Assembly: GCF_014697025.1 (NCBI RefSeq)
Contig: NZ_JACJRC010000019.1
Span: 69,081 to 101,080, forward strand
Direction: 5' to 3'
DNA from: Alkalinema sp. FACHB-956
GTDB taxonomy: Bacteria; Cyanobacteriota; Cyanobacteriia; Leptolyngbyales; Leptolyngbyaceae
DNA: 32,000 nucleotides
Part shown: piece after piece, positions 5,842 through 26,982 of the stretch
Numbering within the stretch: position 1 is the stretch's first letter
Layout of the letters: every line of letters begins with the position of its first letter
Position numbers and translations under genes: made by a program
The notes under the pieces: generated by a model
Database searches by the model: none
Told to the model about the DNA's origin: nothing
Seen by the model: the letters and a program-made list of their open reading frames with translations, nothing else

Positions 5842-6088
5842 ACTCTTTAACTCCTCACTGATACGGACTCAGAATACAGACCCAGAACTTGTTTAGGCTG
5901 AGATTTTCACTTTGTCAAGCTGATTTGGATTAAGCTTAGGTCGATCGGGGATCAGCTTTTACTCTCTGCACTTTAACTAACACGATTCCATGGCCCACAA
6001 TGACCAATCCTAGTAATTATCATCAAAGCAACGAATTGTGGCGTTTTAGGGGCACGGCTCCGGTGAAAAACCTACTCCCTCGATCGAA

Positions 6089-9461: not shown

Positions 9462-10115
9462 CTACTTGCTGCTGTAAATGTCCCCCAGCCGATTGAAGGG
9501 GAAAAAGCGCACCCAAGCTCGCCCGATAATGTTCTGCCGGGGCAAAAATCCCCAGGCATGGGAATCGTTGCTGTTATTACGGTTATCCCCCATGACGAAG
9601 TAATAGTTGTCTGGCACTTGGAAACTCTCGCCTTCCTTCAGTCCTTTGGAAAATAAGAAGGAACAAAAATCCTGGCCGCGCGGAACTAAGGGAACTTGAC
9701 TCGGACAGTTATAGGCGGGAGGTTCAGCAATGTAGGGTTCCGCGATCGGCTGACCATCGATCGACACTTTGCCTTGATAAACGCCCACGCGATTGCCCGG
9801 TTGGCCGATGATGCGTTTGATCAGGGCTTGATCTTTACCATAGCCCTGGCGCTGTAAGGGTTCGGGGGCACTAAAGACCACAATATCCCCAGTTTGAGGG
9901 GGATGGAACCAATAGGAAACCTTCTCAACAATCAAGCGATCGTCGGTCAACAAGGTTGGCACCATGGAATCGGAGGGAATGAATCGCGGTTCTGCAATAA
10001 AGGTGCGAACCAATAACGCCACAATCAGCGCGATCACGACAATCTGAATATTTTCCCAAACGGACTTCCAACGGTCAGTCCGGTCTGAATTGGATGAATT
10101 GGGGTTATTCGCCAT
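9462..10115 (-). CDS. lepB: Signal peptidase I
   Basis: An N-terminal TM segment is followed by SDSMVPTL (catalytic Ser box), LIKRIIGQPGN (Lys box) and GDNRNNSNDSH. Confidence 0.93.
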   Translation of the reverse strand: MANNPNSSNSDRTDRWKSVWENIQIVVIALIVALLVRTFIAEPRFIPSDSMVPTLLTDDRLIVEKVSYWFHPPQTGDIVVFSAPEPLQRQGYGKDQALIKRIIGQPGNRVGVYQGKVSIDGQPIAEPYIAEPPAYNCPSQVPLVPRGQDFCSFLFSKGLKEGESFQVPDNYYFVMGDNRNNSNDSHAWGFLPRQNIIGRAWVRFFPFNRLGDIYSSK

Positions 10116-10522
10116 AGTTCAACCTAACAACTACTGTCGGATTTCTGAGTCTGGGGTTTCTGCCGCTTCTAGATCGCCAGACTGAAGCCACTGAAGCCAA
10201 ACAGTCAACTTACCAACAGCCACAATCTATATCAGAAGAATTCAATCATCTGCCATTATCCCGTGCCTTGCCGAATATTCCGCGAAAAAGACCGTCGATC
10301 GAGGGTGAACAAAATTTACGGTTGCGAAGATTTTCTGAGTTTCTCGGCCCATCCCAGAAACTGCGTTGCAAAATGGTACGTAAATCAGGAGTCACAAGAA
10401 TTGGGTGGGTAGTTAGCCCTCACAGAGGATCTCCTGGGAGACTTCCGATCGTCTCTAGTCGTCCTCTCACCATCGTCATTACTGTATCTACTTTTAAGCC
10501 ATAGGAAATTAGGGAAGAAACG

Positions 10523-11146
10523 ATGACTTTTACCGCAGACCAGCTCACAAGACTTCGCGATAATCTAGACGGCTTAGGCTATCCCATGGGGCCTCGCGGT
10601 CTGTTTGGCATTGGCAATGAGCAAAATGCCTTTGATGCGGCGGCCTTAGGGGGCGGCAGCATTACTGCCAATAATTCCATGCGGAGTATCAAGGTTCTGG
10701 ATGCCTATACCCGATCGGCGATCTATCAATTCCAGCGCGATCGGCAACTGACCGCCGATGGTAAGTTCAGTGCGGATCTCTTGACGCAGGTGGATGGCAT
10801 AGTCCGCAACTTACAAAACAACTTGAAACTAGTCCTGAAAAAAAGTGACTTACCGCTAACGGGCTATTACGGGATCCAAACCTTCCAGGGCGTCAAGGAA
10901 TACCAAAAAGCCAAGGGTTTACCCATCACTGGAATTGCCACCCCAGCGATTCAACGGCAACTGAATGACGAAGCCAGAAAGTTGGCTGGGAAACCCACAA
11001 CCGGCGGATCGACCACACCCCCAGCCGTGGCTCCCAATGACGCAGTAACAAAACTGGCAGCGCTGTCCAGCATCAAGCGCCGCTACCAAAACGGGGATAT
11101 TCTCACCGACGATTTTGTTAAAGAAGTGATTCAAGCGATTCCCTAG
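10523..11146 (+). CDS. Peptidoglycan-binding (PG_binding_1-like) domain protein
   Basis: Two repeats follow the pattern ..YQFQRDRQLTADGKF.. and ..VKEYQKAKGLPITGIATPAIQRQL.., characteristic of PG-binding domains. Confidence 0.75.
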   Translation: MTFTADQLTRLRDNLDGLGYPMGPRGLFGIGNEQNAFDAAALGGGSITANNSMRSIKVLDAYTRSAIYQFQRDRQLTADGKFSADLLTQVDGIVRNLQNNLKLVLKKSDLPLTGYYGIQTFQGVKEYQKAKGLPITGIATPAIQRQLNDEARKLAGKPTTGGSTTPPAVAPNDAVTKLAALSSIKRRYQNGDILTDDFVKEVIQAIP

Positions 11147-11286: not shown

Positions 11287-12381
11287 TTACCAGGGACAGG
11301 TTGACGGATCGGCGCTACATCCCATGCGCTGAATGGTATTCTGCTCAAATTGGTCAATGGCTAGGGTCGGCGTGTCATTGTTCAGAAAACGTCCGGTGAG
11401 GAGTAGGACGGTTAAAGGATCCGCCAGTCCTGTTGCTTTGAGTTTGACGGTGCTTTGGAAGCTGCGAATGCCGTCAGCATCGGGGCTAAATCCTAGTTTC
11501 TTCAGAGAGCGATCGATCTGGGACTGGGTTAGTACAACTTCATTGGGCCGAAAGATGGGGACATACTCCTGTCGCCAGCGCGATTGGAGTTCCTCCTGCG
11601 TCCAACTGTAATAGCGGCCTTGGGCGGGATCGGCAACAACGACATGATCCTGATCCATTGCCATCAGGGCAACGGCATGGGGTAATCTGCGCCACCCTGC
11701 CCCTAGCCAGACGGATAACAAACCGGGGCGATTAATCTTCCAGAGCTGCTCCCAGGTGGCTTGGGTGACTTCCAATCCCGTTAGCCCAAAGCCTTGGGCG
11801 GCTTTGATCACCTGCGGATTGGACGTTCCCATACGACTGGTTCCGGCCAGTTGCGCCACTTTGGATTCCGTGGCTTGGGTCATCCCCCAGCGTTGCAGCA
11901 AGGTGGCCAAGGCAGAGGGAGCACAGCTACTGGCAGAGGTTTGCTTAAAAACCTGATTGGGCCGCAGGTTGTTTTTCAGTTCGCCATAGATCGGTGACAG
12001 GTAGTAGGATTCCACCACGGTAAAACTGATTAAGCCGATTAAGCTCACAGCAACGATCGCGCCCAATTGGACCCGTGCGGTTTTCCAGCTAATGGCGATC
12101 GCAAAGCCACAGGCTCCGATTAACAAAACTCGGATCATCAGCCAAGTAATCCGCATTCCCACCACGCGCCAATCCAACGGGAAAAATTGCATCTGCGGCA
12201 AATTCACTGCCAGAAATAGCAACAACCCATAGATCAGAATAATGATCCAGGTTTGCCATTCCTGTCCCTTGAGCAAGTCGTTAGCCGTTGCCCCACGACG
12301 CAACATCAACTGGCCGAGGCGCGTGCCCCCATAAAAAAATACGGCTCCCAACGCTAGCGTGGCCGGAACAATCCACAGCAT
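11287..12381 (-). CDS. Membrane-anchored peptidase C39-like cysteine protease with a C-terminal PG-binding-like domain
   Basis: The N-terminal ~140 aa are hydrophobic. SASSCAPSALATLLQRWG supplies the C39-like Cys and HAVALMAMDQDHVVVADP the His. The C-terminus, LKKLGFSPDADGIRSFQSTVKLKATGLADP, resembles PG_binding_1. Confidence 0.7.
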   Translation of the reverse strand: MLWIVPATLALGAVFFYGGTRLGQLMLRRGATANDLLKGQEWQTWIIILIYGLLLFLAVNLPQMQFFPLDWRVVGMRITWLMIRVLLIGACGFAIAISWKTARVQLGAIVAVSLIGLISFTVVESYYLSPIYGELKNNLRPNQVFKQTSASSCAPSALATLLQRWGMTQATESKVAQLAGTSRMGTSNPQVIKAAQGFGLTGLEVTQATWEQLWKINRPGLLSVWLGAGWRRLPHAVALMAMDQDHVVVADPAQGRYYSWTQEELQSRWRQEYVPIFRPNEVVLTQSQIDRSLKKLGFSPDADGIRSFQSTVKLKATGLADPLTVLLLTGRFLNNDTPTLAIDQFEQNTIQRMGCSADPSTCPW

Positions 12382-12553: not shown

Positions 12554-13612
12554 GTGCAACGGCGTCAATTTCTTCAACAACTTTTACAAACTTCTGGGGG
12601 CTTGATTGGAGCGAGCTTGCTCACGGGCTGTCAATCCCAAAGCATTGATCCGCTCTTTTTAATGGATTTGCTTGATCCCAAAATGCCCTTACCGGATCAT
12701 CTGATTACCCCGATCGGTGAGTTTTATGTGCAATCCTATGCACTGCCCTCCCAGGTGAAGTTGGAAAACTGGGAACTCAAAATTGATGGAGCGGTCAAGC
12801 AACCCTTGACGTTGAAATTTGACGATATTTTAAACGCACCCCAGGAAGAGTTCTATCTCACGATGGAATGCATTGGCAATCCGGCGGGGGGTAACTTGAT
12901 CGGCAATGCCCGGTGGACGGGGACACCGCTGCTACCGTTTTTGGAAAAAGCGGGCGTGCAACCGGAGGCGGTGGAGTTCAAAATGCGGGGCAATGACTGG
13001 TACGAAACCACGTTGCCTGTGGCGGAGTTGCTGCGGCCTGAGGTGCGGTTGGTGCATCGCATGAATGGCGAACCGTTGACCAAGGAGCATGGCTTTCCGT
13101 TGCGCATTATCATTCCGGGCCACTTTGGCCAGAAGCAACCGAAATGGCTGGTGGGCATTAAGGCGATCGCGAAGCCAGAAACGGGCTATTGGGAAAATCA
13201 AGGCTGGTCGAATACGGCGGAAATTCCGACCCATGCGTTGCTGCGGCAAGTACAGGAGCAGCGGGTGTGGAATGGCCATCACAGCGTGACGTTTAAAGAC
13301 GAGCTAACGAACCTAACGAATCATTGGCGCGATGGCATTTTGCTGGCGGGAGTGGCCCTCGATCGATCGACGCCCATTACCCAAGTCCAAGTCAGTGTCG
13401 ATAACGGTCAAACCTGGCAAGTTGCAGAACACAATCAGCCCAGTTCTCCCCATGAATGGACATTGTGGCGTTACCGTTGGTTACCCGATCGTCCGGGGAA
13501 ATATACCGTTCTGGCACGGGCGCAGTCGGGGCGGGAAATGCAAGAGATTACCCGATCGGATAAAAAGCAAGGTAGACCCGGTATTTTAAAAATCGATGTC
13601 ACACTTGCATAA
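12554..13612 (+). CDS. Molybdopterin-dependent (sulfite-oxidase-family) oxidoreductase with a Tat signal
   Basis: GTG start. It has a twin-arginine signal (QRRQFLQQLL) plus MECIGNPAGG and GFPLRIIIPGHFGQKQPKWL, typical of the Moco-binding oxidoreductase domain. Confidence 0.85.
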   Translation: MQRRQFLQQLLQTSGGLIGASLLTGCQSQSIDPLFLMDLLDPKMPLPDHLITPIGEFYVQSYALPSQVKLENWELKIDGAVKQPLTLKFDDILNAPQEEFYLTMECIGNPAGGNLIGNARWTGTPLLPFLEKAGVQPEAVEFKMRGNDWYETTLPVAELLRPEVRLVHRMNGEPLTKEHGFPLRIIIPGHFGQKQPKWLVGIKAIAKPETGYWENQGWSNTAEIPTHALLRQVQEQRVWNGHHSVTFKDELTNLTNHWRDGILLAGVALDRSTPITQVQVSVDNGQTWQVAEHNQPSSPHEWTLWRYRWLPDRPGKYTVLARAQSGREMQEITRSDKKQGRPGILKIDVTLA

Positions 13613-13621
13613 TTCCGATTA

Positions 13622-13655
13622 GTCGCCAATTGGTCGCCAATTGGTCGCCAGATTG
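13622..13655. repeat. 11-bp x3 tandem repeat directly after the oxidoreductase stop codon
   Basis: The units are GTCGCCAATTG, GTCGCCAATTG and GTCGCCAGATTG. Confidence 0.85.
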
Positions 13656-14013
13656 ATTATCTGAAGTTCATTTAAGCGATCCTCTAGTATTCCGGTATTA
13701 ATCATGAATTTATTCTAATTAATGCCTTCACTAGCACTATTTTGAGTACATTAAAGTCTCATCTAAACATAGCAAAATTAATCATTGAGATTGTTGCAAC
13801 TTTACTTTGAATTCAATTTATTCTGATGTCAGAATGATCCATTACTCAAAACCGAAAATTTACGACTGCTCCGCGCTTCGATCGTCCCTTCGATCGTTAG
13901 CAGAGGATTCCACCCCCTCGTCCCTAACTTTTCCTCTCAAAATCTGCCAAAAGTCTGTTATAAGAGAGTCCTAAGGTAATGGCATCCAAGCATGGCAGCA
14001 GAGGAGCACGGCA

Positions 14014-16269
14014 ATGGACTGGAAGGAGTGGCCGCAGCGCAAATTAGTCGGAACCATCATCGTCGGGCTGGGGATTGCCTCCTTTGGAGTGGGTGCCCTG
14101 GTTTCTACAACCGTCAAAACGGATCCGAATGGTCGTTTTCAATTCATGGGGATCACCAGTCCTTTCCCCAACGGCAGTCATTCAGGTTCTAGCAACGCCA
14201 TTGGTGCACCCAGTGCAGTCAGCCCGCTGATCACCAATCGACCCTCCCCGCAACGCACCGAAGCACTCCAAAAATTTGCCAACGCCGCTCAACCCTCCCT
14301 CGATCGCAACCGTGCCCGCTACCTCCTCGCCCATACGGCCCTCGAAGCGGGGCAAGCCCAAGCCGCGATCGACCTCCTGAAAGATCTAGAAACCCACTAC
14401 CGTCCCATGGCTGCCTCCGTCCTTTTGCAGCAGGGTCGCGCCCAGGAAGCGGCTGGGCAGAAAGAACCGGCGATCGCGGCCTATCAATCCATCCTGCAAC
14501 AATTTCCCAAAGATCCGGCGGCGGCGGAAGCCCTGTTTAACTTAGGTAAAATTCTCGGAAAATCTGGCGAACAACATTGGAATCAGGCGATCGCCCAATT
14601 TCCCAGCCATCCCCGCGCGATCGACATTGCCAAACTGCGGTTACAGGAGAACCCCAAACAGGACAGCCCCAAACTGTTTCCCATGCAGTTGCATCTCGCC
14701 AAGTACGACTACGAAACGCGGGACTACGCCAGCCGGACGGAAAAATTCCTGCAAACCTATAGTAAACAACTGAAACCGGAGGATTGGGCCGCGATCGCCT
14801 TTGGCCTCTGGGAAAATCAGAAATACGACCTCGCCGCTGCGGCCTATGCCCGCGCCCCGGAAACGGCTTTAACGGCTTACCGGGCTGCACGGGGCTTGCA
14901 TTTGACCGGACAATCGGGCAGTCAGCAACGCTATCAAGCCGTTGTGCAGAAATACCCCAAGACGCCCGAAGCGGGACTGGCACTGACCCGACTGGCCCAA
15001 CTGGCGGAAAAACCCCAGGACGCGATCGCCTATCTCGATCAAGTGATTGGCCATTATCCAGATAAAACCCCAGAGGCGATCGCCAGTAAGGCCGATGCCT
15101 TGGAGAAACTCAACAGTCTCCAATCCGCCAGTCAACTGCGGCAATTGCTCCTGCAACAGCATTCCAATAGTGAAGCTGCTGCCGAACTGCGCTGGAAAAT
15201 TGCCCAAGACCAAGCCAAAGGCGGCAAACTTCCTGCGGCGCAGCAGTGGATCGAAGCCATTTTGAAGGACAACCCCACGAGCCCGATCGCGGCCAAGGCG
15301 GGCTTTTGGGGCGGGAAATGGGCGCAACAATCCGGCCAAAGCCAGCAGGCATCCAATCATTACCAAGCCGTGATTAAACTGCATCCGGAATCCTATTACG
15401 CTTGGCGATCGGCGTCGCGGCTGGGTTGGGATGTGGGCGATTTCGATAACGTACGTCAGTTACAACCGGCGATCGTGCGGCCAAAGGTGCGCGATTCCCT
15501 GCCAGCGGGGTCAGACACGCTCCGGGAACTGCACCACCTGGGCTTCGATCGGGACGCTTGGAGCTATTGGCAAGTGGAATTCCAAAACCGGCAACAGCCC
15601 AGCGTGGCGGAACAGTTTACCGATGGAGTGATGCGTCTGGGCGTGGGCGATAACCTGGATGGAATGTTTATGATATCCAACTTGAACGATCGGGAAGCCG
15701 CCAACGATCGGCAACAGGTGGCCACTTTGCGGAAAGATGCCAGCTATTGGCAAGCGCTCTATCCCTTCCCCTACATGGCGCAGATCGAGTCTTGGTCGCG
15801 GCAACGGCAACTGAACCCGATGTTAGTCACGGCCCTAATCCGCCAGGAATCCCGCTTTGAGCCGCAGATTAAATCGTCGGTGGGTGCAACGGGGTTAATG
15901 CAGGTCATGCCCGAGACGGCCAGTTACATCGCCAGCCAAATCAAGTTAAAGGAATACAAACTCGATCGACCGGAGGACAACATCAAGCTAGGCACTTGGT
16001 ATCTGAACTACACCCACCAGGAATATTCCGGGAATTCCATGTTGGCAGTCGCGAGTTATAACGCAGGCCCCGGTGCGGTGGGAGGCTGGCTAGCGAAAAG
16101 TAAGACCCAGGATGCTGATGAATTTGTGGAAGCGATTCCCTACGCAGAGACGAAGGGCTATGTGAAGTCCGTCTTTGAGAATTACTGGAACTATTTACGA
16201 TTGTATAACCCCACCATTGCCCAAAAGGTTGCACAAGTTTCACCGAACCATCCCCGTGAATTATTTTAG
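14014..16269 (+). CDS. Soluble lytic murein transglycosylase (Slt70-like) with an N-terminal anchor and a TPR-like superhelical region
   Basis: 751-aa ORF. The C-terminal SLT domain has the motifs LIRQESRFEP (catalytic Glu), GLMQVMPETA and SYNAGPGAV. The antisense ORFs within it are discounted. Confidence 0.9.
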   Translation: MDWKEWPQRKLVGTIIVGLGIASFGVGALVSTTVKTDPNGRFQFMGITSPFPNGSHSGSSNAIGAPSAVSPLITNRPSPQRTEALQKFANAAQPSLDRNRARYLLAHTALEAGQAQAAIDLLKDLETHYRPMAASVLLQQGRAQEAAGQKEPAIAAYQSILQQFPKDPAAAEALFNLGKILGKSGEQHWNQAIAQFPSHPRAIDIAKLRLQENPKQDSPKLFPMQLHLAKYDYETRDYASRTEKFLQTYSKQLKPEDWAAIAFGLWENQKYDLAAAAYARAPETALTAYRAARGLHLTGQSGSQQRYQAVVQKYPKTPEAGLALTRLAQLAEKPQDAIAYLDQVIGHYPDKTPEAIASKADALEKLNSLQSASQLRQLLLQQHSNSEAAAELRWKIAQDQAKGGKLPAAQQWIEAILKDNPTSPIAAKAGFWGGKWAQQSGQSQQASNHYQAVIKLHPESYYAWRSASRLGWDVGDFDNVRQLQPAIVRPKVRDSLPAGSDTLRELHHLGFDRDAWSYWQVEFQNRQQPSVAEQFTDGVMRLGVGDNLDGMFMISNLNDREAANDRQQVATLRKDASYWQALYPFPYMAQIESWSRQRQLNPMLVTALIRQESRFEPQIKSSVGATGLMQVMPETASYIASQIKLKEYKLDRPEDNIKLGTWYLNYTHQEYSGNSMLAVASYNAGPGAVGGWLAKSKTQDADEFVEAIPYAETKGYVKSVFENYWNYLRLYNPTIAQKVAQVSPNHPRELF

Positions 16270-19088: not shown

Positions 19089-19757
19089 GTGGCCAGTTTG
19101 CAATTCAAGTTGAAGTTATTTCGACGACGGGAAATTTGGTGTCCGACCTGGCGAGGTTGGCTCTTGCTGGGAGTGCTCTTGCTGGGGTTAGGGCTGGGGG
19201 TTGTGCCGCGAATTCATCCGTTTTTTGCTGTGACTGCGCCGATTTCAGCGGAGGCGTTGGTCGTGGAGGGGTGGATGGATGATGAGGCCGTTATCCAGGC
19301 GATCGCGGAATTCAAATCCCATCCCTACCAATTGTTGATTACAACGGGTTCTCCACTGCCGAAAGGCTTTTATTTAGCGCAATATCAAAACTTTGCGGAA
19401 TTATCGAAGGCTACCTTAATTCAAAGGGGATTTCCGGTCGATCGTATTGTTGCAGTTCCTGCGCCTTTTGTGATCAAAAATCGTACCTATACTGCTGCTC
19501 TCTCCGTTAAACAATGGTTGGAAAGAACTCAATCTTCCATTCGTGCAATCAACATTTTTACAACGGGAGCCCATGCGCGTCGCAGTTGGATGCTCTATCG
19601 CAGGGCGCTGGAACCGCAGTTTCAAGTGGGGGTGATTGCAACGCCACCACAAACCTATGAAGTCGATCGATGGTGGGCCAGTAGTGAAGGGGTGAAAATG
19701 GTGATCTTTGAGGCTTTAGGGTGGTTCTATGTCCAGGTGTTTAATCGGTTGGATTAG
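19089..19757 (+). CDS. DUF218 (YdcF/ElyC/SanA-like) family protein
   Basis: GTG start and an N-terminal TM segment. ALVVEGWMDDEAV, LLITTG and IFTTGAHARRS fit the DUF218 pattern as I recall it. Confidence 0.65.
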   Translation: MASLQFKLKLFRRREIWCPTWRGWLLLGVLLLGLGLGVVPRIHPFFAVTAPISAEALVVEGWMDDEAVIQAIAEFKSHPYQLLITTGSPLPKGFYLAQYQNFAELSKATLIQRGFPVDRIVAVPAPFVIKNRTYTAALSVKQWLERTQSSIRAINIFTTGAHARRSWMLYRRALEPQFQVGVIATPPQTYEVDRWWASSEGVKMVIFEALGWFYVQVFNRLD

Positions 19758-19783
19758 GTGGTGGGAGACGGGATGTGGAGCGG

Positions 19784-19864
19784 GAGAAGGTGAATTTGTT
19801 GGTCTTTGATGCAAAACAGGAGGTTGTGGTGCAGTGGATCGAGTCAATGAGTATCGAACCATAA
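19784..19864 (+). pseudogene. xisH: 3' remnant (about 20 codons) of a xisH gene overlapping the xisI start
   Basis: The frame reads ..EKVNLLVFDAKQEVVVQWIESMSIEP*. It aligns without gaps to the C-terminus of the intact XisH in this window (GVKLLIYNPIEEEIVLWKD*). It overlaps the xisI start as xisH-xisI pairs do. The rest of xisH is missing and the DUF218 stop lies at 19757. Confidence 0.4.
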
Positions 19865-20175
19865 TTCAGCGGGTGATGGCTGATTATTACCAGCTTTATT
19901 CCCGATCGAAGAATCCAGATTTAGAGACGTTGTTGTTGTGTGATGGGTCGCAGGATCAGTATTTGTTGATGCGGTTGGGCTGGGAGGGCGATCGGCGGGT
20001 GAATCGGAATGTGATTCATTTGCGGTTGCGGGATGGCAAGGTGTGGGTGGAGGAGGATTGGACGGAGCAGGGGGTGGCGACGGATCTGTTGGCGGCAGGG
20101 GTGGAGCGAGAGGCGATCGTGCTGGGGTTTCAGCCTCCTCATGTGAGAGAGTTTACGGAGTTTGCGGCGGTTTAA
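19834..20175 (+). CDS. xisI: XisI (fdxN-element excision controlling factor I family)
   Basis: 113 aa, GTG start. YRTIIQRVMADY, LLMRLGWEGDRRV, HLRLRDGKVWVEEDWTE and IVLGFQPP match the XisI family and the second XisI copy at 24477-24812. Confidence 0.85.
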   Translation: MDRVNEYRTIIQRVMADYYQLYSRSKNPDLETLLLCDGSQDQYLLMRLGWEGDRRVNRNVIHLRLRDGKVWVEEDWTEQGVATDLLAAGVEREAIVLGFQPPHVREFTEFAAV

Positions 20176-20262
20176 GGTTCGATCATTTTGGTGGGTGGAA
20201 GGTTTTGGGATTCAGGTGTTAAACTCTAGCAGATAATGCTTCTCTGCTGGAGTTTTTAGGCC

Positions 20263-20745
20263 ATGGTGGTCGATCGTTTGGCGGATATTCATGCTGCGTT
20301 GACGGATCTTTATGAGCAGCTTGCGGGTGAGGAACGCGCATGGCGGTTGGCAGAGGAGGCGGAGAAATCTAGGCTTCAGCAGAAGATTCGGTTAACTTGG
20401 CAGAGAATTCGTGAGTACGATCGCGAATATGTTTTAACTTTGAGCAAGCGGGTGAAACGGGCGGATTTGCCGGAGCCGATCGCGGAGGCGGTGATGGCTG
20501 AGTTTGTGGATGAGCTGGAAGTTCTGGCTCCCATGGAGAAGCGGGATGAGACGAAGCAGCTTTTGTTGGAGATTTTAGCGGAGTTGAGGAAGCCGGGGGT
20601 GCCTGCTTCGGCGAAATTAAAGGTGGCGATTCCGATTATCCCGAATGTGGTGAGTTATGAGCTGGAGGGGGATACGGAGAGTGTGGTGCGGCGGCTGTTT
20701 CCGACGTTTGTGAAGGTGTACGAGGCGATCGCGGCAAAAAAGTAG
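20263..20745 (+). CDS. 160-aa coiled-coil protein with a C-terminal hydrophobic segment (SAKLKVAIPIIPNVVSYELEGDTES); candidate adaptor/effector partner or N-terminal module of the downstream STAND NTPase
   Basis: ATG start. About 110 aa are charged and heptad-rich (EERAWRLAEEAEKSRLQQKIRLTWQRIREYDREY..), followed by a short hydrophobic motif. It has the same G3/T3 codon regime as the NB-ARC 5' half. It ends GCA AAA AAG TAG. Confidence 0.7.
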   Translation: MVVDRLADIHAALTDLYEQLAGEERAWRLAEEAEKSRLQQKIRLTWQRIREYDREYVLTLSKRVKRADLPEPIAEAVMAEFVDELEVLAPMEKRDETKQLLLEILAELRKPGVPASAKLKVAIPIIPNVVSYELEGDTESVVRRLFPTFVKVYEAIAAKK

Positions 20746-20779
20746 CGGCTCTTGGTGCAGGGAGTTCTGAGCCAGGAGC
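20722..20779 (+). promoter_or_regulatory. Candidate -1 ribosomal frameshift cassette: SD-like GAGG, slippery A_AAA_AAG, spacer, stem-loop
   Basis: GAGG lies at 20722-20725. The heptamer A AAA AAG lies at 20736-20742 in the zero-frame X_XXY_YYZ register. TAG lies at 20743-20745. An 8-bp stem pairs 20748-20755 with 20772-20779 (one G-U pair), starting 5 nt after the heptamer. The -1 frame is open from 20661 to 24239. Confidence 0.35.
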
Positions 20780-20828
20780 GCCATCAAAGTCAAGTCTGAA
20801 GCCGAGTGCGCTGAGGCTACCAGTACAA

Positions 20829-23800
20829 TTGCCGGAGAATTTTGTGAAGCGGCCTGAGGCGCTGGCGGCAGTGAAGGAACTGCTGCTACGGGAGAGTGAG
20901 CGGACGTTGGTGGTGAGCGCGATCGCGGGGTTGGGTGGCCTTGGAAAGTCGGTGTTGGCGACGGCGATCGTGTGGGATGACGAGGTGCAGGCGCGGTTTG
21001 CGGATGGGATTTTGTGGGTGACGTTGGGGCAGCAGCCGGATTTGTTATGGGAGCTTGGGGAGTGGATTCGGGCGTTGGATAAGTCGCGGGAGAGTTGGAG
21101 TGCGACGACGCTGGAGTCGGCGAGGAGGTATTTGCATAGTCTGCTAGTGGATAAGCGGGTATTGCTGGTGGTGGATGATGTATGGAATGCGGCTCATGCC
21201 AAGTGGTTTTGGGTGGGTGGGCCTGAGTGTCGGGTGTTGGTGACGACGCGGGGGGTTCCAATTATTGGGGCGGAGCGATATGACTTAGATGTGATGTCGC
21301 CAGAGGATTCACTGACATTGATTCGGAAGACGTTAGCGGATAAATGGCAGGTGGAGATGGAGCAGCCTGCGTTAGAGTTTGCAGAGATGCTGGGACACTT
21401 ACCTTTGGCGTTACGGTTGATGGCGCTTCAGATTAGTCGTGGGAAAAGGTGGGAGTCGCTAAAGCAGGCATTTTTGAAGGAACGGTTGCGGTGTTTGTAT
21501 GAGGCTGGGGTACGGTTGTCAGATTTGTCTGAACAGGAACAGCGCCAATGCAGTTTAGCGGCTTGTTTTGAGGTGAGTTTGGCAAGGTTACGGGAGGACG
21601 ATCCGGCGCTATATGAGCAATTTGTGTGGTTGGGGGTGTTACCGGAGGATGTGACGATTCAAGAACAGATGGCAGTGACGTTGTGGGGTGTGGAAGATTG
21701 GGAGGCAGAGGAGTCGCTGTTGAGTTTGTATGAGCAGGCGTTTCTGATGAGAGCGGGGGAGTCAGTTGAGGGATATGCACTGTATCGGATGCATGATTTG
21801 ATGCATGCTACGGCGCAGGGGTTGATTGAGTCAGGATGTTTAGCGGGTGTAGAGAGTTTGGCTGCGGCGCATCGATCGTTTGTGGGACGGTATGGCAAAT
21901 TGAATGCGGAAGCTTATTTGTTTGGGTTGCCGAAGGATGGTTATATTCATCGGCATCTGACGTGGCATTTGGTGATGGCGGGGCGGGAGGATACGGTTCA
22001 TCGATTGCTGCAACGGAGTAATCGATTGGGGCGAAATGCTTGGTTTGAGGCTTGTGAGGAGATTGGGGAGCCTGCGATTTTTGTGCAGGATGTGCAGCGG
22101 GGTTGGGAGTTGGCGGAGGCGTTGTATGAGCGGGATAATGCAAAAGCAATTATTTTACAGATAAGATATGTACTAATTTTTACAACCCTAAACAGTCTAC
22201 TAAATCACATTCCGGATGAATTAATTGCCGCCCTAGTAAAGCATGGCTATTGGCAAGTGGAAAAAGGATTAGCCTACGCAGAGAATATTCCGGAAAACTG
22301 GCATCGTGGTAATACCATTATTGAATTAGTTCCTTATTTATCTCAGACTCTTGCCATCAAGTCGATCAATATTGCTCAGGAAATTGATGATGATTCCATT
22401 CGAGAAAATGTTCTTCAGGCTATAGCCCGAAAGTTCCCCGAATTGCTTCCTAATATTCAGCTTAATAAAAGTGATTTTCCTGACAAAGAAGTAAACATTT
22501 TAGAACATCTTCAAATAGATACATCTGATGGTAGTCAATTAGCAGCTTTAGAGAAAATCCAAATAATAGTAGATGAAGAGGATAAGTGCAAAGCAATATG
22601 TGAAATAGCGCCTAAGTTAAAGGAAGAATTTCTTGAAAAAGCAGTTAGTATTGCATATTCAATCGAGCATTTGGAATTACACATCAAAGCTCTATGCCGT
22701 ATAGGAAAACATATCCCAAAAATTTATCCCGATCTATATAGTAGAATATTATCACTAGAGCCAGAGGATCCATCTCTTGGCAGTGGAGAGGATTTTGCAT
22801 TGATTCTTTGCCACGCAATTTCAATTTTTCCTGAACTAGCTCAAAAGGCTTTAGAGTGGTCATCCAACTATCTAACTGATGAATTTATGCCATGGGCTGT
22901 ACGCAAAATAGCACCTCATATCGATGAGGATGATTTATTGTATGAAGCCTTAGACTATATATTTTCTGAACGGGATGAATATTATTATTCAGATGGTCTT
23001 GCAGCACTCTCCCCATACCTTTCTCCTGAATATATTACTATTGCCTTTAATAGAGCACAATTGATTCATGATCCTGGCAGTCGTATAGCAGCACTTAATG
23101 CTTTAGTATCCTATTTACCTTTTGAGAAGCTTGAAAGCTTTCTTTCCACTTCAAAACAGATCAGTGATCAATATGAATATTGTTATGCAATCGCCTATTT
23201 CTCTCGAAAATATCCTGTGCTACACAATCACATGATTGAGATATTAAAGACTATAGAAAATGAATTAGATTGTATAAATACACTATTTTTACTTGCAAAA
23301 TATCTCCCTATTCAATACTTGTCGCAGATTCGTGGATTCATTGAAAAAGTCCATGAAGAATACGAATACTTTTCTCTTTTAATCCTGCTAGCAGCAAAAG
23401 ATTCTTCACTATTGCAAGACATTATAAGAGAGTCAAAATATCTCGACAATGATGATTATGCAGGCATTATGGTTCAACTAGCAGAGTTAATGCCTGAAAA
23501 AAACAATGAAGCACTTAAGGCTGTTAAAAAAATAAAAAATGGTTATAGGAAGAAACTTCTTTTAAAAAGATTGCTCCCCTGCTTGAGTAGAAAACAGCTT
23601 TTATCTTTATATAACCGAACGAAAAAAGGTGTTGTTGATGAAGATGATATAGAGATGCTCATTGAGATTGTCAACTTTTTACCAGAAAAGGCAGAAGATT
23701 TATTGGAAAAAATACGAATGAGTTTCGGGCAGAAAACTGAATGGAATTGGTTGGTTGAGCTAGCTAAATTTCTTCCAGATTTGTGTTTAGAAACCTTAGA

Positions 23801-24239
23801 AAAATGTGCCGAACCTTCAGAAATTCTTTCGCAAAGCGATACTTTGATAATTTATATGACTGCCTTTCCTGATTCTCTACCTTATGTAATGGAAAAATTT
23901 CCACAAGTTCGATGGGATAAGCTCAATATGTTTAATTTAATAGCTTTAGCGAAATCTCTTAAAGCTGAATTCCTGCCAGATGCTATAACCGCCATCAAGA
24001 AACTGAGTAATCCACAAGAGAGAGCAGATGCTTACAGCAACTATCTCTCTCGCCTATCTTGGCAGAGTATGTCTTATGAAGAGTGGAAAGATATATTAAA
24101 AATATTGTCATCGAGCGAACGTGCATCCTTCCTAAAAGCCTTGCCAGATCTTACACCTGGTATTAAGACTTTTGGTGGAGAACACGTAGTAGAGGATGTG
24201 ATATTGACCTTGCGTGAAGTTTATAGCCAATGGCCTTAA
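20829..24239 (+). CDS. NB-ARC (AP-ATPase/STAND) NTPase with a C-terminal helical-repeat (HEAT/ARM-like) sensor region
   Basis: The NB-ARC signature is complete: Walker A GLGGLGKS (aa 34-41), VLLVVDDVW (aa 111-119), RVLVTTR (aa 135-141) and GHLPLAL (aa 189-195). From about aa 440 on there are repeated units of the type ..L..LA..LP....L..AL..I.. The protein ends GGEHVVEDVILTLREVYSQWP. There is no ATG start: TTG at 20829, or GTG at 20844 with GGAG 7 nt upstream. No effector domain precedes the NOD. Confidence 0.9.
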   Translation: MPENFVKRPEALAAVKELLLRESERTLVVSAIAGLGGLGKSVLATAIVWDDEVQARFADGILWVTLGQQPDLLWELGEWIRALDKSRESWSATTLESARRYLHSLLVDKRVLLVVDDVWNAAHAKWFWVGGPECRVLVTTRGVPIIGAERYDLDVMSPEDSLTLIRKTLADKWQVEMEQPALEFAEMLGHLPLALRLMALQISRGKRWESLKQAFLKERLRCLYEAGVRLSDLSEQEQRQCSLAACFEVSLARLREDDPALYEQFVWLGVLPEDVTIQEQMAVTLWGVEDWEAEESLLSLYEQAFLMRAGESVEGYALYRMHDLMHATAQGLIESGCLAGVESLAAAHRSFVGRYGKLNAEAYLFGLPKDGYIHRHLTWHLVMAGREDTVHRLLQRSNRLGRNAWFEACEEIGEPAIFVQDVQRGWELAEALYERDNAKAIILQIRYVLIFTTLNSLLNHIPDELIAALVKHGYWQVEKGLAYAENIPENWHRGNTIIELVPYLSQTLAIKSINIAQEIDDDSIRENVLQAIARKFPELLPNIQLNKSDFPDKEVNILEHLQIDTSDGSQLAALEKIQIIVDEEDKCKAICEIAPKLKEEFLEKAVSIAYSIEHLELHIKALCRIGKHIPKIYPDLYSRILSLEPEDPSLGSGEDFALILCHAISIFPELAQKALEWSSNYLTDEFMPWAVRKIAPHIDEDDLLYEALDYIFSERDEYYYSDGLAALSPYLSPEYITIAFNRAQLIHDPGSRIAALNALVSYLPFEKLESFLSTSKQISDQYEYCYAIAYFSRKYPVLHNHMIEILKTIENELDCINTLFLLAKYLPIQYLSQIRGFIEKVHEEYEYFSLLILLAAKDSSLLQDIIRESKYLDNDDYAGIMVQLAELMPEKNNEALKAVKKIKNGYRKKLLLKRLLPCLSRKQLLSLYNRTKKGVVDEDDIEMLIEIVNFLPEKAEDLLEKIRMSFGQKTEWNWLVELAKFLPDLCLETLEKCAEPSEILSQSDTLIIYMTAFPDSLPYVMEKFPQVRWDKLNMFNLIALAKSLKAEFLPDAITAIKKLSNPQERADAYSNYLSRLSWQSMSYEEWKDILKILSSSERASFLKALPDLTPGIKTFGGEHVVEDVILTLREVYSQWP

Positions 24240-24299
24240 AGAAGAATTCTTTTTCTTAATAAAATTTTGTTCGAATGCTTCTGCCTCATGCTCTACAGA

Positions 24300-24434
24300 C
24301 TAGCCCACTGCAAACGGTCAGACCTGATGGGGGATTTGACGACACTTTATCCAGCGATTTTGCACCTAGGCGGTGAAGGCGCAATGCAGGGGATTGTGGA
24401 AGAGATGAAGCGGATTTGTGGGCAATGGCCGTAG
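24300..24434 (+). pseudogene. Orphan STAND-gene 3' tail, copy 1 (last 44 codons plus stop)
   Basis: It reads LAHCKRSDLMGDLTTLYPAILHLGGEGAMQGIVEEMKRICGQWP*. This aligns without gaps to the C-terminus of the intact STAND protein (..RASFLKALPDLTPGIKTFGGEHVVEDVILTLREVYSQWP*). Confidence 0.6.
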
Positions 24435-24476: not shown

Positions 24477-24812
24477 CTAGGCGACACTGTAGCCTGTATC
24501 TGCCCTGGCATACTCCGGCTGTAATCCCAACACAATATCCTCCTTCCTCACTCCCCGCTCCACCAACGCCTGCGCAATCAATCGATCGGTTTCATTCCGC
24601 TGAATCCAAACCTTCCCATTCTTAATATCCAAATGCATCAACACACTATAAAACCGTCGATTCCCTTGCCATCCTAAACTCACTAGCTGATAGTGATCAC
24701 GATCGCGATCGTAAATAGTCTGAATTTCTGAATCAGCCTGTACCACTTCACCCCCAGCATATTCAGCCAAAAGCGCTGTAATAATATCTCGATATTGCTC
24801 TAGTCCTTCCAT
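24477..24812 (-). CDS. xisI: XisI family protein
   Basis: 111 aa with YRDIITALLAEY, LVSLGWQGNRRF, HLDIKNGKVWIQRNETD and IVLGLQPE. Its start overlaps the xisH stop by 13 nt. Confidence 0.9.
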   Translation of the reverse strand: MEGLEQYRDIITALLAEYAGGEVVQADSEIQTIYDRDRDHYQLVSLGWQGNRRFYSVLMHLDIKNGKVWIQRNETDRLIAQALVERGVRKEDIVLGLQPEYARADTGYSVA

Positions 24813-25219
24813 AGGACAATTTCCTCCTCAATTGGGTTGTAAATGAGCAGCTTCACCCCATAAGTTTGCACTGAGGCTTTCGCTAATGGACGTTGGAAAA
24901 ACATCTCATAGGCAATCAGTGGCACTGCTAAATATAGTTTGCGATCGGGTTCCACACTTTGCAACACCAACCGATAATTCAAAAACTGTCCTAAGGCTGC
25001 ATGGTAATCAAACAAAGCAGACTCACTCAAAAAGCTCTTGATTTCAACAGCGATTTTTTCATTGTCACGTTCCGCTGCAAGTAGTCTTTCTGCTCCCAAG
25101 TCAATTCTCACTTCATCTTCATCCTCGAACTTCAACCTCAGAGGATCGGCAGTAATATTCCATGCCTCCTTCAACAAAGCTGTCTTCACTGCGTCATGGT
25201 ATCGGTCTTTTGCAGACAT
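24800..25219 (-). CDS. xisH: XisH family protein (endonuclease-like fold)
   Basis: 139 aa. MSAKDRYHDAVKTALLKEAWNITADPL.., IDLGAERLLAAERDNEKIAVEIKSF and LYLAVP match the XisH pattern. Confidence 0.9.
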   Translation of the reverse strand: MSAKDRYHDAVKTALLKEAWNITADPLRLKFEDEDEVRIDLGAERLLAAERDNEKIAVEIKSFLSESALFDYHAALGQFLNYRLVLQSVEPDRKLYLAVPLIAYEMFFQRPLAKASVQTYGVKLLIYNPIEEEIVLWKD

Positions 25220-25294
25220 TTTATCGATCGGGATTGACTGGGCTTTTGTTTTCTATCATACCTCCCCCGCCTCCCCCTCGCTTCCCTTCCGCGC

Positions 25295-25456
25295 ACCGAC
25301 TGGCAAGCCTACCTGCACCTGCTAGCCCACCGCACAAGGGCAGCCCTGCTGGGTGATTTAGTGACGCTTTATCCCGCAATTTTACACCTAGGCGGTGAAG
25401 GCGCAATGAGGGGAATTGTGGAAGAGATGAAGCGGATTTGTGGGCAATGGCCGTAG
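25295..25456 (+). pseudogene. Orphan STAND-gene 3' tail, copy 2 (last ~51 codons plus stop)
   Basis: It reads TDWQAYLHLLAHRTRAALLGDLVTLYPAILHLGGEGAMRGIVEEMKRICGQWP*. Its last 51 residues (from W) align without gaps to the last 51 residues of the intact STAND protein (W..L..L....RA..L..L..L.P.I...GGE......QWP). Positions 25385-25490 are nearly identical to 24363-24468. Confidence 0.6.
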
Positions 25457-25594: not shown

Positions 25595-25861
25595 ATGACT
25601 CTGAAAGAAACCTTACTGCAAGAACTCGAAACCGCTGATGAAGAATTGATCACAGCAGCGATCGAATGGGTACGATCGCGCAAACATCAAACCGCACTGC
25701 CACCTGCCAGTGGTGTCCCAATTCAGCGTGGGGCAAAACTGGGTGACTTACTTGAATTTGCGGGCACTTGGGCGGGTGAAGATTTAGCCGATTGTTTAGA
25801 AAACGTCTATGCCACCCGCAGTAAAACCGATTTTAGCGCTGCTCCCCAACCCTTCGAGTAA
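25595..25861 (+). CDS. Antitoxin (DUF2281-like N-terminus) paired with VapC
   Basis: 88 aa. MTLKETLLQELETADEELITAAIEWVRSRK resembles the DUF2281 antitoxin N-terminus. Its stop is 2 nt before the vapC ATG. Confidence 0.65.
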   Translation: MTLKETLLQELETADEELITAAIEWVRSRKHQTALPPASGVPIQRGAKLGDLLEFAGTWAGEDLADCLENVYATRSKTDFSAAPQPFE

Positions 25862-25863
25862 CG

Positions 25864-26310
25864 ATGTATCTGCTTGACACCAACCATTGCAGCCAGATTA
25901 TTGCAGGCGATCGGCAAGTGATTCAGGAAATTCTCAGCCGTCGTAATGAAGGCGTTGCAATTAGTGTTATTGTCCAAGGTGAGCTGCGTTTCATGGCCGA
26001 ACATTCCGCTCAAAGAACTGAAAATCTAAATCAGATTCAAGGCTTTCTGGAACGATTTGATCTGTATCCGATTAGTGCGGATATCAGTAATACCTATGCC
26101 TCACTCAAAGCTTCACTGCTCAGGACGTTTGGGCCAAAAGATCAAGCTCAGCGCCGTAAAACACGAATTCAAACAATTGGTTTTGATGATAACGATCTGT
26201 GGATTGCGGCTACAGCGATTCAGCATCAGCTTATTTTGGTTTCGGCGGACAGTGATTTCGATCGAATGCAGCAAGTCTCAACACTACGGGTTGAATCCTG
26301 GATAATGTAA
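25864..26310 (+). CDS. vapC: PIN-domain toxin VapC
   Basis: 148 aa with MYLLDTNHC (first acidic residue), VQGELRFMAE, NDLWIAATAI and LVSADSDF, the four PIN motifs. Confidence 0.9.
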   Translation: MYLLDTNHCSQIIAGDRQVIQEILSRRNEGVAISVIVQGELRFMAEHSAQRTENLNQIQGFLERFDLYPISADISNTYASLKASLLRTFGPKDQAQRRKTRIQTIGFDDNDLWIAATAIQHQLILVSADSDFDRMQQVSTLRVESWIM

Positions 26311-26323
26311 GTTCTTAAGGCTC

Positions 26324-26428
26324 CACCTGCTAGCCCAGCGCACACAGGCAGCCCTGATGGGGGATTTGGCAACACTTTACGCAGCGATTTTACACCTAGA
26401 TGGAGAAGTTAGAATAGAGGCAGGCTAA
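26324..26428 (+). pseudogene. Orphan STAND-gene 3' tail, copy 3 (truncated; diverges after ..LHLDGE)
   Basis: It reads HLLAQRTQAALMGDLATLYAAILHLDGEVRIEAG*. Positions 26324-26408 are homologous to copies 1 and 2, then replaced by GTTAGAATAGAG... Confidence 0.5.
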
Positions 26429-26449: not shown

Positions 26450-26698
26450 ATGAATATTACCTTGAGACCCGAACAACAAGCATTTCTTCAGACACAGCTC
26501 GAATCCGGTGCATACATCAACCCAGACGATCTCATTAACGATGCGATCGCCCTTCTCGCAGCCAAGCACCAAAAACTACGCGAACTCCAACAAATGATTG
26601 AGATTGGGACTGAACAAATTCAACGCGGAGAAGTCACTGACGGGGAACAAGTCTTTGATCGGTTACAAACTCAGTATGGCTTTTCCACGGAATCATGA
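26450..26698 (+). CDS. ParD-like (CopG/RHH-type) antitoxin
   Basis: 82 aa. MNITLRPEQQAFLQTQLESGAYINPDDLINDAIALL.. is the ParD4/TIGR02606-like pattern. It overlaps the toxin gene by 4 nt (ATGA). Confidence 0.75.
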   Translation: MNITLRPEQQAFLQTQLESGAYINPDDLINDAIALLAAKHQKLRELQQMIEIGTEQIQRGEVTDGEQVFDRLQTQYGFSTES

Positions 26699-26982
26699 AT
26701 ACCTATTCATTCTCCGCAGAAGCCATTCGGGACTTAGAGTCTATTTGCCAGTATATTTCTCAAAACAACGACTGGGCCGCCAGCAAAACGTTTGATGCAA
26801 TCCGAAAAAAGGCAAAGCTCCTCGCTCAATTTCCTAGTATGGGTAAGGCATACAATCAACTCGCTCCCAATCTCAGAGGTGCCCCTGTAGAAGACTACCT
26901 GATTTTTTATTATCCCAGGCCAGACGGTATTGATATTGTGAGAATCATAAGTGGCTATCGAGATCTAGAACAACTTTTCTAG
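26695..26982 (+). CDS. ParE/RelE-superfamily toxin
   Basis: 95 aa. A.RDLESICQYIS..N...A..F...I......L..FP.MG and YLIFYYPRPDGIDIVRIISGYRDLE fit the ParE pattern. Confidence 0.8.
   Translation: MNTYSFSAEAIRDLESICQYISQNNDWAASKTFDAIRKKAKLLAQFPSMGKAYNQLAPNLRGAPVEDYLIFYYPRPDGIDIVRIISGYRDLEQLF

Follow-up and report, generated by a model that had tools for sequence, protein, structure and literature searches.

Gene content of the locus

A conflict-type locus centered on a STAND NTPase lies within a 32,000-nt stretch of the Alkalinema sp. FACHB-956 genome (contig NZ_JACJRC010000019.1, positions 69,081 to 101,080; hereafter, the window). Three closely spaced genes are read from the same strand: an orphan xisI gene, an open reading frame (ORF) encoding a 160-aa protein, here termed p160 (100% identical to a hypothetical protein of this strain), and a long STAND ORF (Table 1). 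The spacers measure 87 nt between xisI and p160 and 83 nt between p160 and the STAND ORF. The STAND translation contains a P-loop (GLGGLGKS, including K40), a Walker B motif (LLVVDDVW), a GLPL-like motif (GHLPLAL), and an MHD motif (RMHDLMH); the Pfam NB-ARC model matches residues 12-218 of the ORF (1.6e-23), APAF1_C matches weakly (8.7e-4), and the NCBIfam matches, to AfsR-type NB-ARC and FxSxx_TPR, are partial. The ORF belongs to the NB-ARC (AP-ATPase) clade by both motif and domain content, in agreement with a first-pass annotation of the sequence, which had described the same strand arrangement, spacing, P-loop lysine, and NB-ARC assignment. As that annotation had also noted, the ORF as listed starts at the nucleotide-binding oligomerization domain (NOD) and carries no N-terminal domain.

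PADLOC v2 models, including those for Avs and bNACHT, gave no match to xisI, p160, STAND, or xisH at E <= 1. An Rfam scan of the 19-28 kb region returned no known frameshift element and no other RNA family, and a promoter and terminator scan gave counts near the shuffled expectation, with no terminator in the intergenic spacers.

A predicted -1 frameshift cassette at the end of p160

The 3' end of p160 reads gcA AAA AAG TAG, which corresponds to a -1 frameshift signal of the dnaX/IS3 type, and its A_AAA_AAG heptamer is the sole in-phase X_XXY_YYZ site in the gene. The -1 frame is open from position 20661, within p160, to 24239, at the end of the STAND ORF, extending 1165 codons past the site, and contains no ATG, GTG, or TTG before the TTG at 20829, which is its codon 29. 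Because local codon usage disfavors A-ending codons (11% A-ending; 6 AAA versus 19 AAG for Lys; GCA in 10 of 71 Ala codons), GCA-AAA-AAG is an unusual choice.

To place the site in a comparative context, the window was considered together with 32 other fetched p160-bearing loci from genomes and metagenomes. The heptamer, a stop 0-1 codon later, and a long -1 ORF occur together in 15 of the 22 informative distinct loci: A_AAA_AAG in the clade comprising the window, L001, L002, L003, L005, L010, L015, L016, L026, L027, L028, and L033, and G_GGA_AAG in a second p160 clade (L006, L022/31/32, and L029). In nearly all loci the stop, TAG or TAA, follows the heptamer within 0-1 codon. The -1 ORFs of the conforming loci run for 266-1334 codons, or to the contig end, and encode NB-ARC, NACHT, or TPR-only NTPases; in L032, the gene caller called nothing downstream of p160 despite a -1 ORF of 593 codons. 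Among 109 close p160 homologues (150-195 aa), 98 end in KK or GK no more than 3 residues from the C-terminus. This Lys-Lys end would be a feature of the protein if p160 and STAND were two ordinary genes read with no recoding, the STAND protein starting at TTG 20829 or GTG 20844 and acting with p160 in trans. However, the third base of the codon preceding the Lys pair is invariably A (GCA, CCA, CGA, GGA, TCA, CAA), or G in the second clade, so that the nucleotide at the X position is kept across differing amino acids.

A candidate stimulatory hairpin follows at the optimal 5-nt spacing, which likewise is not expected of two ordinary genes. Its minimum free energy is -21.1 kcal/mol (z = -3.15). 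Across 12 loci, 82% of cells are paired, compared to 31-51% in slid controls, and 8 of the 13 pairs are changed on both sides; none of 500 shuffles reached the observed values. A covariance model built from the heptamer and hairpin and run over 275 kb on both strands recovered p160 3' ends only, including that of L010, on which it had not been trained.

Between heptamer and STAND ORF, the -1 frame encodes a transframe linker whose peptides are alignable across loci and differ in length by whole codons. The shared motif, SGLKPGAPxPRVRLPENFV (S-LKP...LPENFV), is also found in the closest NB-ARC relatives (P0270, P0275, P0278, and P0325), where it stands in frame between an N-terminal domain (EAD4, caspase, or others) and the NOD. 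In the window, every possible start codon comes after the motif part SSLKPSALRLPVQ, which is therefore translatable solely by ribosomes coming from p160. The linker would accordingly be a translated segment, and its predicted tryptic peptide VAALGAGSSEPGAPSK could only originate from entry out of the p160 frame. A motif held in common with in-frame EAD4- and caspase-NB-ARC proteins, -1 frames that are open and free of start codons, and the 593-codon ORF of L032 without a called start all argue against two separate genes.

Taken together, an in-phase heptamer, a covarying hairpin at 5-nt spacing, and a conserved start-less -1 ORF, the features that define a frameshift cassette, are present at this locus, and fusion of p160 to the NB-ARC ORF by -1 frameshifting is considered very likely. 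The functional unit is most likely a pair of overlapping reading frames, rather than three genes, whose long product would be a standard tripartite STAND protein with p160 in the slot that is filled by EAD4, TIR, or caspase domains in sister NB-ARCs. The description of the NB-ARC as effector-less in the first-pass annotation thus does not hold, given that the predicted cassette at the p160 stop joins p160 to it as an N-terminal module. The same annotation had proposed an effector supplied in trans or by recoding; recoding proved to be the key point, and p160 appears to be more than a trans-acting neighbor.

Several observations weigh against this interpretation. Frameshifting is deduced here from sequence comparison alone. 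The covariance model misses the G_GGA_AAG clade and L033, support for the structure in the G_GGA_AAG clade is weak (RNAalifold, 5 sequences), and because the hairpin region codes for protein as well, its covariation is harder to interpret. The NOD lies in the +1 frame in three loci: in L009 despite a heptamer and hairpin, probably through an extra indel in the linker; in L020, which has an A10 run; and in L025, a distant homologue with 33% identity. Candidate independent STAND starts exist at TTG 20829 and GTG 20844, and the NCBI protein P0121 (1131 aa, 'NB-ARC domain-containing') starts 5 codons after TTG 20829. In L001, L015, and L010, a GTG overlaps the p160 stop, and termination-reinitiation is possible there. 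At the level of function, no similarity of p160 to characterized adaptors or effectors was detected in sequence and fold comparisons, and the absence of any PADLOC match also counts here.

Some of these points favor the two-gene alternative, namely the GTG right at the p160 stop in some loci and the different frame of the L009 NOD, to which may be added an SD-like (Shine-Dalgarno-like) GAGG ~12 nt before TTG 20829 and the separate annotation of p160 and STAND by gene callers. Set against the conserved X position, the hairpin, and the linker, they leave that alternative improbable. The frame irregularities in L009 and L020, together with the proneness of homopolymer runs to indels and the existence of in-frame p160-STAND fusions in distant relatives (P0149 and P0161), could also suggest that a former in-frame fusion has been split by pseudogene decay or by an indel in the assembly. 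This explanation is extremely unlikely, since the heptamer, the stop, and the -1 relation recur in isolates and metagenomes across many genera at p160 identities of 50-93%, and both ORFs are intact over >1000 codons. Transcriptional slippage is considered unlikely as the general mechanism, since G_GGA_AAG contains no long homopolymer and a run of A6 is short.

In L025 (6470-6600), which derives from a marine metagenome, the p160 homologue ends ..TTT TTT CGG AAA TGA. This locus may have arrived at recoding in another way, through a +1 shift (UUU_CGG), or may simply hold two ordinary genes.

Conservation of the p160-STAND linkage

In the window and many other loci, an NB-ARC, NACHT, or TPR ORF begins within ~50-140 nt after p160 (window, L001, L002, L003, L005, L006, L009, L010, L015, L016, L020, L022, L025-L029, L031, and L033). 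No STAND ORF follows p160 in L004, L007, L013/14, and L019, where insertion sequence (IS) elements or toxin-antitoxin (TA) modules are found instead. Remnants of TPR-type STAND C-terminal tails persist in L007 and L013/14, STAND-tail remnants are likewise kept in L010, and the p160-STAND linkage is therefore ancestral. Every informative locus thus has a STAND, NACHT, or TPR ORF, or its decayed remains, after p160, which bears out the earlier suggestion that the 160-aa protein is a STAND partner. No other effector gene is conserved beside p160-STAND, and the 32-kb window contains no second p160 copy.

In contrast, the proposal that xisI is part of the system did not survive the comparison. A tblastn search with either XisI of the window found none beside p160 in the 32 other p160-bearing loci, and p160 upstream neighbors vary everywhere (GmrSD, DUF4058, Uma2, PemK, HisKA, and others). 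A three-gene system of xisI, p160, and STAND, for which the common strand, the 87-nt spacing, the codon regime described below, and the lack of a terminator-like site between the genes would speak, is accordingly judged highly improbable. The xisI copy preceding p160 has no adjacent xisH and stands at the left edge of the island, the complete pair being located downstream of STAND, in the slot of a TA cassette, where it marks XisI genes as generic island cargo. By this comparison, xisI appears to be an island bystander, a neighbor rather than a conserved component.

TA and defense islands are the usual setting of p160 loci. In the window, the description of the surroundings as packed with TA modules is correct for the downstream side, which holds the xisH/xisI pair, an 88-aa ORF followed by a PIN gene, ParD/ParE, and a DUF5674 pair; upstream, housekeeping-like genes (TPR, MFS, DUF218) are found. 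The 88-aa ORF has no Pfam match and resembles ORFs preceding PIN genes in L001; from its position and this similarity, it is read as a putative VapB-like antitoxin.

In L013 (756-800) and also in L021, loci without their downstream STAND gene, the p160 stop is directly followed by a perfect 22-bp inverted repeat, possibly a terminator or else a trace of the event, deletion or insertion, by which STAND was lost.

Table 1. Positions of genes, recoding signals, and repeat copies in the window and in three related loci
Feature	Position	Strand	Description
xisI	19834-20175	+	Orphan XisI gene (PF08869), Pfam 6.7e-39
p160 ORF, 160 aa, zero-frame product	20263-20745	+	Predicted six-helix domain
-1 slippery heptamer A_AAA_AAG	20736-20742	+	In phase with the p160 frame (gcA AAA AAG)
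Transframe linker, 29 codons	20742-20828	+	VAALGAGSSEPGAPSKSSLKPSALRLPVQ; -1 frame, no ATG, GTG, or TTG
Zero-frame TAG stop	20743-20745	+	Directly after the heptamer; terminates free p160
Candidate stimulatory hairpin, 9 bp + 4 bp	20748-20779	+	GCTCTTGGT...GCCAGGAGC; starts 5 nt past the heptamer
STAND ORF	20829-24239	+	TTG start
NB-ARC NOD, winged helix, and APAF1_C-like helical region	20829-22139	+	G-rich, C-poor
Sensor	22140-24239	+	AT-rich, putative ~40-aa helical repeats; own divergent tail (...TLREVYSQWP*)
Sensor-tail copy 1	24249-24434	+	Older, GC-rich, ..LHLGGEGAMQGIVEEMKRICGQWP*; then purine-rich tract
xisI/xisH pair	24477-25219	-	Pfam XisI 5.1e-39, XisH 4.9e-54
Sensor-tail copy 2	25250-25456	+	90% nt identity to copy 1 over 169 nt
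88-aa ORF, then PIN (VapC) toxin	25595-26310	+	PIN 1.4e-12; orthologous pair in the L001 array
Sensor-tail copy 3	26306-26408	+	3'-truncated
ParD/ParE toxin-antitoxin cassette	26450-26982	+	
L001 sensor-tail copies	12609-12827, 13490-13744, 15085-15192		
L010 sensor-tail copies	10101-10238, 10936-11127, 11903-11974		
L015 sensor-tail copies	4946-5137, 5913-5978		

p160 as a predicted helical domain of NTPases and effectors

The p160 family is cyanobacterial and comprises 146 clusters at 90% identity, nearly all of ~160 aa and 50-93% identical, with the C-terminal signature PASAKLKVAIPxIPxVVSYELEGDTESVVRRLFPTFVK. AlphaFold2, run on a 75-sequence alignment, models p160 as six helices (mean pLDDT 86, pTM 0.77), such that the earlier label of a charged coiled coil is better replaced by that of a predicted six-helix all-alpha domain. 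The absence of a named family, as first reported, was borne out by all comparisons: p160 has no match in Pfam (E <= 0.01), NCBIfam, or PADLOC; its profile retrieved only noise from Protein Data Bank (PDB) sequences (E >= 0.07); and a Foldseek search of the PDB with the AlphaFold2 model gave nothing at E <= 0.001, the top matches being designed helical bundles. Pfam searches with 75 family members yielded only scattered weak matches, including EAD9 in 3 of 75 (best E = 0.035) and Apolipoprotein-type amphipathic-helix models in 12 of 75, and 10 distant members gave no EAD match.

An exhaustive profile search (299 cluster representatives at E <= 0.001) showed that p160 is also a fusion partner. 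It is located in frame at the N-terminus of an nSTAND1 NTPase (P0149), an AAA_16+TPR STAND (P0161), and a TPR protein (P0132), as well as of GUN4 and a periplasmic-binding domain. It is C-terminal to TIR (P0181), SEFIR/TIR (P0231), caspase+GUN4 (P0205), and TRADD-N (P0168, P0210) domains, and to Roc-COR (P0215, P0178), NACHT (P0187), and SNF2 (P0138). On the basis of its NB-ARC N-terminal slot and its tagging of effectors elsewhere, p160 may be regarded as a homotypic adaptor, although whether it serves as an adaptor rather than as a direct effector is an even call.

The main functional rival accepts frameshifting but casts p160 as the executioner: a helical bundle, likened to the plant coiled-coil (CC) domain, HeLo, MLKL, and Bell, would change conformation when clustered, and the abundant free p160 would join a membrane-damaging or filamentous assembly seeded by STAND-fused copies, following HET-S/NWD2 logic. 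Intact p160 persists in STAND-less loci, no other effector gene is conserved in the adjacent positions, and conservation peaks in a hydrophobic helix with prolines (AKLKVAIPxIPxVV), after which comes an acidic motif; the weak Apolipoprotein-type matches are also consistent with such a role. This remains rather unlikely, considering that p160 has no hydrophobic stretch of transmembrane length, gave no fold match to CC, HeLo, MLKL, or pore formers of any kind, and frequently has a genuine effector (TIR, caspase, TRADD-N) as its fusion partner, a hallmark of adaptors.

A further helical module without annotation, ..LxxLPxxQFEELxFALNPPxGxxPxxxAxQGNRxxxLLxWxE.., was observed in three contexts: in L016 (3068-3560) it separates the frameshift site from the NB-ARC, in P0029 (residues 1-110) it precedes p160, and in P0273 (residues 1-75) it stands ahead of the NB-ARC of a sister protein. 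P0029 and the L016 segment have no Pfam match at E <= 0.01, and the precomputed record of P0273 lists NB-ARC only.

Composition, sensor replacement, and tail/TA arrays

The first-pass annotation had drawn attention to a codon regime common to xisI, p160, and the NOD half of STAND. This regime is real and extreme: the three share a GC content of ~0.54, a coding-strand GC skew of +0.40 to +0.48, and third positions with 58-59% G and 3-7% C, and G/T-ending codons make up a fraction of ~0.84-0.85, compared to 0.37-0.75 in other window ORFs. As a mark of a unit it fails, since p160 of L001 is skewed far less than its NOD. The regime breaks at ~22140 inside the STAND ORF, beyond which the sensor half has a GC content of 0.35 and no skew. 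G>C-skewed stretches (+0.4 to +0.6) are located at 19600-22140 in the window, 8450-9800 in L001, 900-2400 in L015, 5200-6400 in L029, and 5950-7100 in L033; the G-rich, C-poor regime is found again in L001, L015, and L029, and to some extent in L016, L026, and L033. Its onset lies near the frameshift site, and its end coincides with the NOD/sensor border. The skewed NODs, including NACHT and TPR-type ones, are ~56% identical or unrelated, and the regime is therefore maintained rather than inherited.

Sensors are AT-rich blocks with sharp borders. A search of 5.8e9 proteins with the window sensor returned itself and one homologue of 25% identity, and its identity to the sensors of orthologous loci is ~25-30%. 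No Pfam repeat model matches it; the translation shows ~40-aa periodic motifs of the type L..LaxxLPxxxL, and the single homologue has weak HEAT-like matches. The sharp AT-rich border, the sensor's own tail and stop, and the older GC-rich tail directly after it indicate that the sensor was replaced by recombination, apparently through the swapping in of an AT-rich cassette.

That older tail is the first of several copies (..LHLLAHRKRADLMGDLATLYPAILHLGGE...QW[KP]*) corresponding to the final 45-70 sensor-tail codons of STAND, all in the same orientation. Each copy precedes a purine-rich tract, and the copies alternate with single TA-type pairs in either orientation; in the window, the interspersed two-gene cassettes are xisH/xisI, the PIN pair, and ParDE. 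Arrays of this type, with a period of 0.86-1.02 kb, follow STAND in L001, L010/11, and L015, and occur in at least 4 genomes. Between genomes, the tail copies are 65-90% identical in protein, above the conservation of the NOD. By its appearance, the tail/TA array is a series of cassettes assembled through recombination at the tail.

Three side observations may be added. The xisH/xisI pair fills a slot equivalent to that of the TA cassettes, which fits XisH/XisI as a TA-like two-gene module. In L010 (8934-10070), and likewise in L011 and L012, a reverse-transcriptase gene (RVT_1) separates the frameshift-linked TPR ORF from the first tail copy. In Oculatella sp. FACHB-28 (L009, 12213-13607, minus strand), a XisA/XisC-type recombinase gene is located just past the STAND tail, and a link to site-specific rearrangement at the sensor tail is possible.

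Comparison with known systems

The cassette resembles that of E. coli dnaX (tau/gamma) in its A_AAA_AAG heptamer, the hairpin a few nt downstream, the N-terminus common to both products, and, in most p160 loci, an upstream SD-like GAGG. The dnaX frameshift product is the shorter one, whereas in the p160 locus the frameshift product is long and the zero-frame product is a 160-aa domain. The arrangement also parallels OrfA/OrfAB of IS3/IS1-family elements and lambda gpG/gpGT, in which a short ORF is extended by a -1 shift into a long fusion, and the heptamers of the two p160 clades are those of IS3 (A_AAA_AAG) and lambda G/GT (G_GGA_AAG) (PMC5009743, PMC3711429). In the IS and lambda cases, both products have the same N-terminal domain, and the short one, made in a fixed ratio to the long one, serves as its modulator or chaperone. 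Unlike these, the p160 unit has a STAND/NLR-like (NOD-like receptor) NTPase as its cargo and no transposase or phage genes.

With regard to domain function, the effector-associated adaptor domains (EADs) of NTP-dependent conflict systems (Kaur, Burroughs, Iyer, Aravind 2020, PMC7159879) are the nearest comparison. Like p160, EADs are small, mostly alpha-helical, and non-enzymatic, are found N-terminally on core NTPases and terminally on effectors (TIR, caspase, TRADD-N), and are enriched in filamentous cyanobacteria, and sister NB-ARCs carry EAD4 in the slot of p160. The distribution of p160, on nSTAND1, AAA_16-TPR, NACHT, and Roc-COR on the one hand and on TIR, SEFIR, caspase-GUN4, and TRADD-N on the other, follows the same principle. 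It differs in that p160 matches no Pfam EAD model significantly, as noted above for EAD9, and in that attachment by frameshifting is not mentioned in PMC7159879.

Fungal HET-S/NWD2 and bacterial Bell/BASS-NLR pairs rely on a 20-40-aa amyloid motif duplicated in two separately translated genes (Dyrka et al. 2020, 10.1101/2020.01.06.895854). Bell/BASS pairs similarly place a small helical protein gene directly upstream of an NB-ARC/TPR-type NLR in multicellular bacteria, and in both kinds of pairs the NLR N-terminus and the free partner have a common sequence for templating or recruitment, whereas p160 would share its whole 160-aa domain by translation of the same codons. An amyloid-motif model of the Bell/BASS type was considered for the p160 locus and rejected, as no shared motif was found: the p160 C-terminus TFVKVYEAIAAKK (20704-20742) and the STAND segment before the P-loop NFVKRPEALAAVK (20838-20876) agree at 8 of 13 residues (E = 0.099 for a single comparison), which is probably due to chance, and AlphaFold2 gives the p160 C-terminus as a helix.

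The tripartite order of N-terminal module, NOD, and C-terminal sensor (a putative repeat domain in p160-STAND), as well as the defense-island setting, is common to Avs and bNACHT systems and p160-STAND; p160-STAND differs from them in the lack of a PADLOC match, in its non-enzymatic, predicted helical p160 module that would be joined by recoding, and in its sensor, a putative helical repeat of uncharacterized type. The earlier assignment of the locus to STAND (NB-ARC) conflict systems is supported, and a conflict or immune role appears likely. A non-immune signaling STAND, such as a regulator like AfsR/MalT or a developmental switch, that happens to reside in an island is quite improbable: the best NCBIfam matches are of the AfsR and FxSxx_TPR types, and no PADLOC model applies, yet there is no DNA-binding domain, p160 travels with TIR, SEFIR, caspase, and TRADD-N domains, the sensor is hypervariable and replaced by recombination, and the setting is consistently that of TA or defense islands.

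In animals, CARD-only and PYD-only proteins of the inflammasome likewise are free N-terminal interaction domains that are co-expressed with a receptor and could cap or nucleate its assembly. They are encoded by separate genes and belong to the Death-fold superfamily, to which p160 shows no similarity; this analogy is functional only.

Proposed mechanism

The reading considered probable is that of a STAND conflict system in which a -1 frameshift yields both free p160 and a 1325-aa p160-NB-ARC-sensor protein, with p160 probably acting as a homotypic adaptor. Ribosomes translating p160 would reach A_AAA_AAG just before the TAG and 5 nt before the hairpin. Most would terminate there and release free p160 (160 aa), while a fraction would slip into the -1 frame and continue through the 29-codon linker into the NB-ARC ORF, giving a product with the order p160, linker, NB-ARC, helical domain, and putative helical-repeat sensor. 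The hypervariable sensor may then bind an invader-derived ligand, upon which NB-ARC oligomerization would cluster the N-terminal p160 domains. These could engage other p160 domains homotypically: those of the co-produced free protein, those of effectors that bear a p160 tag (as in the TIR-, SEFIR-, caspase-, and TRADD-N-p160 fusions of other genomes), or both. Free p160 would be either the polymerizing or recruited unit or an adaptor-only buffer that sets the activation threshold.

A more speculative extension, to which only a small probability is attached, is that the ratio of fused to free p160 is set by the translation state of the cell and that the p160, NOD, sensor, and TA modules diversify at recombination joints. 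Slippage at A_AAA_AAG would depend on Lys-tRNA decoding, such that infection-induced tRNA damage, activity of the adjacent VapC/ParE cassettes, or ribosome stalling could shift the output of full-length NLR up or down and thereby switch the system between an armed and a disarmed state. As joints, three conserved nucleotide elements would serve, one at the frameshift cassette, one at the NOD/sensor junction, and one at the sensor tail; p160, NODs, AT-rich sensor cassettes, and TA modules would be shuffled through them by a mechanism dedicated to diversification.

Implications

Bacterial STAND/NLR-like receptors have been described as single polypeptides or as separate gene pairs, and a frameshift-fused form would represent a new expression logic. 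Full-text searches, and the conflict-system surveys, 2026 STAND phylogeny, and recoding surveys consulted, gave no conserved programmed frameshift attaching an NLR-like N-terminal module; literature beyond these may describe one. If the interpretation is correct, a cellular class of recoded bacterial genes, separate from mobile elements, would be gained, and hundreds of cyanobacterial NB-ARC/NACHT genes, now called effector-less or left uncalled for want of a start codon, would need re-annotation. In addition, p160 represents a conflict-system domain that is widespread yet lacks annotation and is also attached to TIR, caspase, TRADD-N, and Roc-COR proteins. The p160-STAND locus could thus offer a natural system in which to address how the ratio of free to receptor-bound adaptor shapes the assembly of immune oligomers, a question that is equally posed by the CARD-only and PYD-only proteins of animals.

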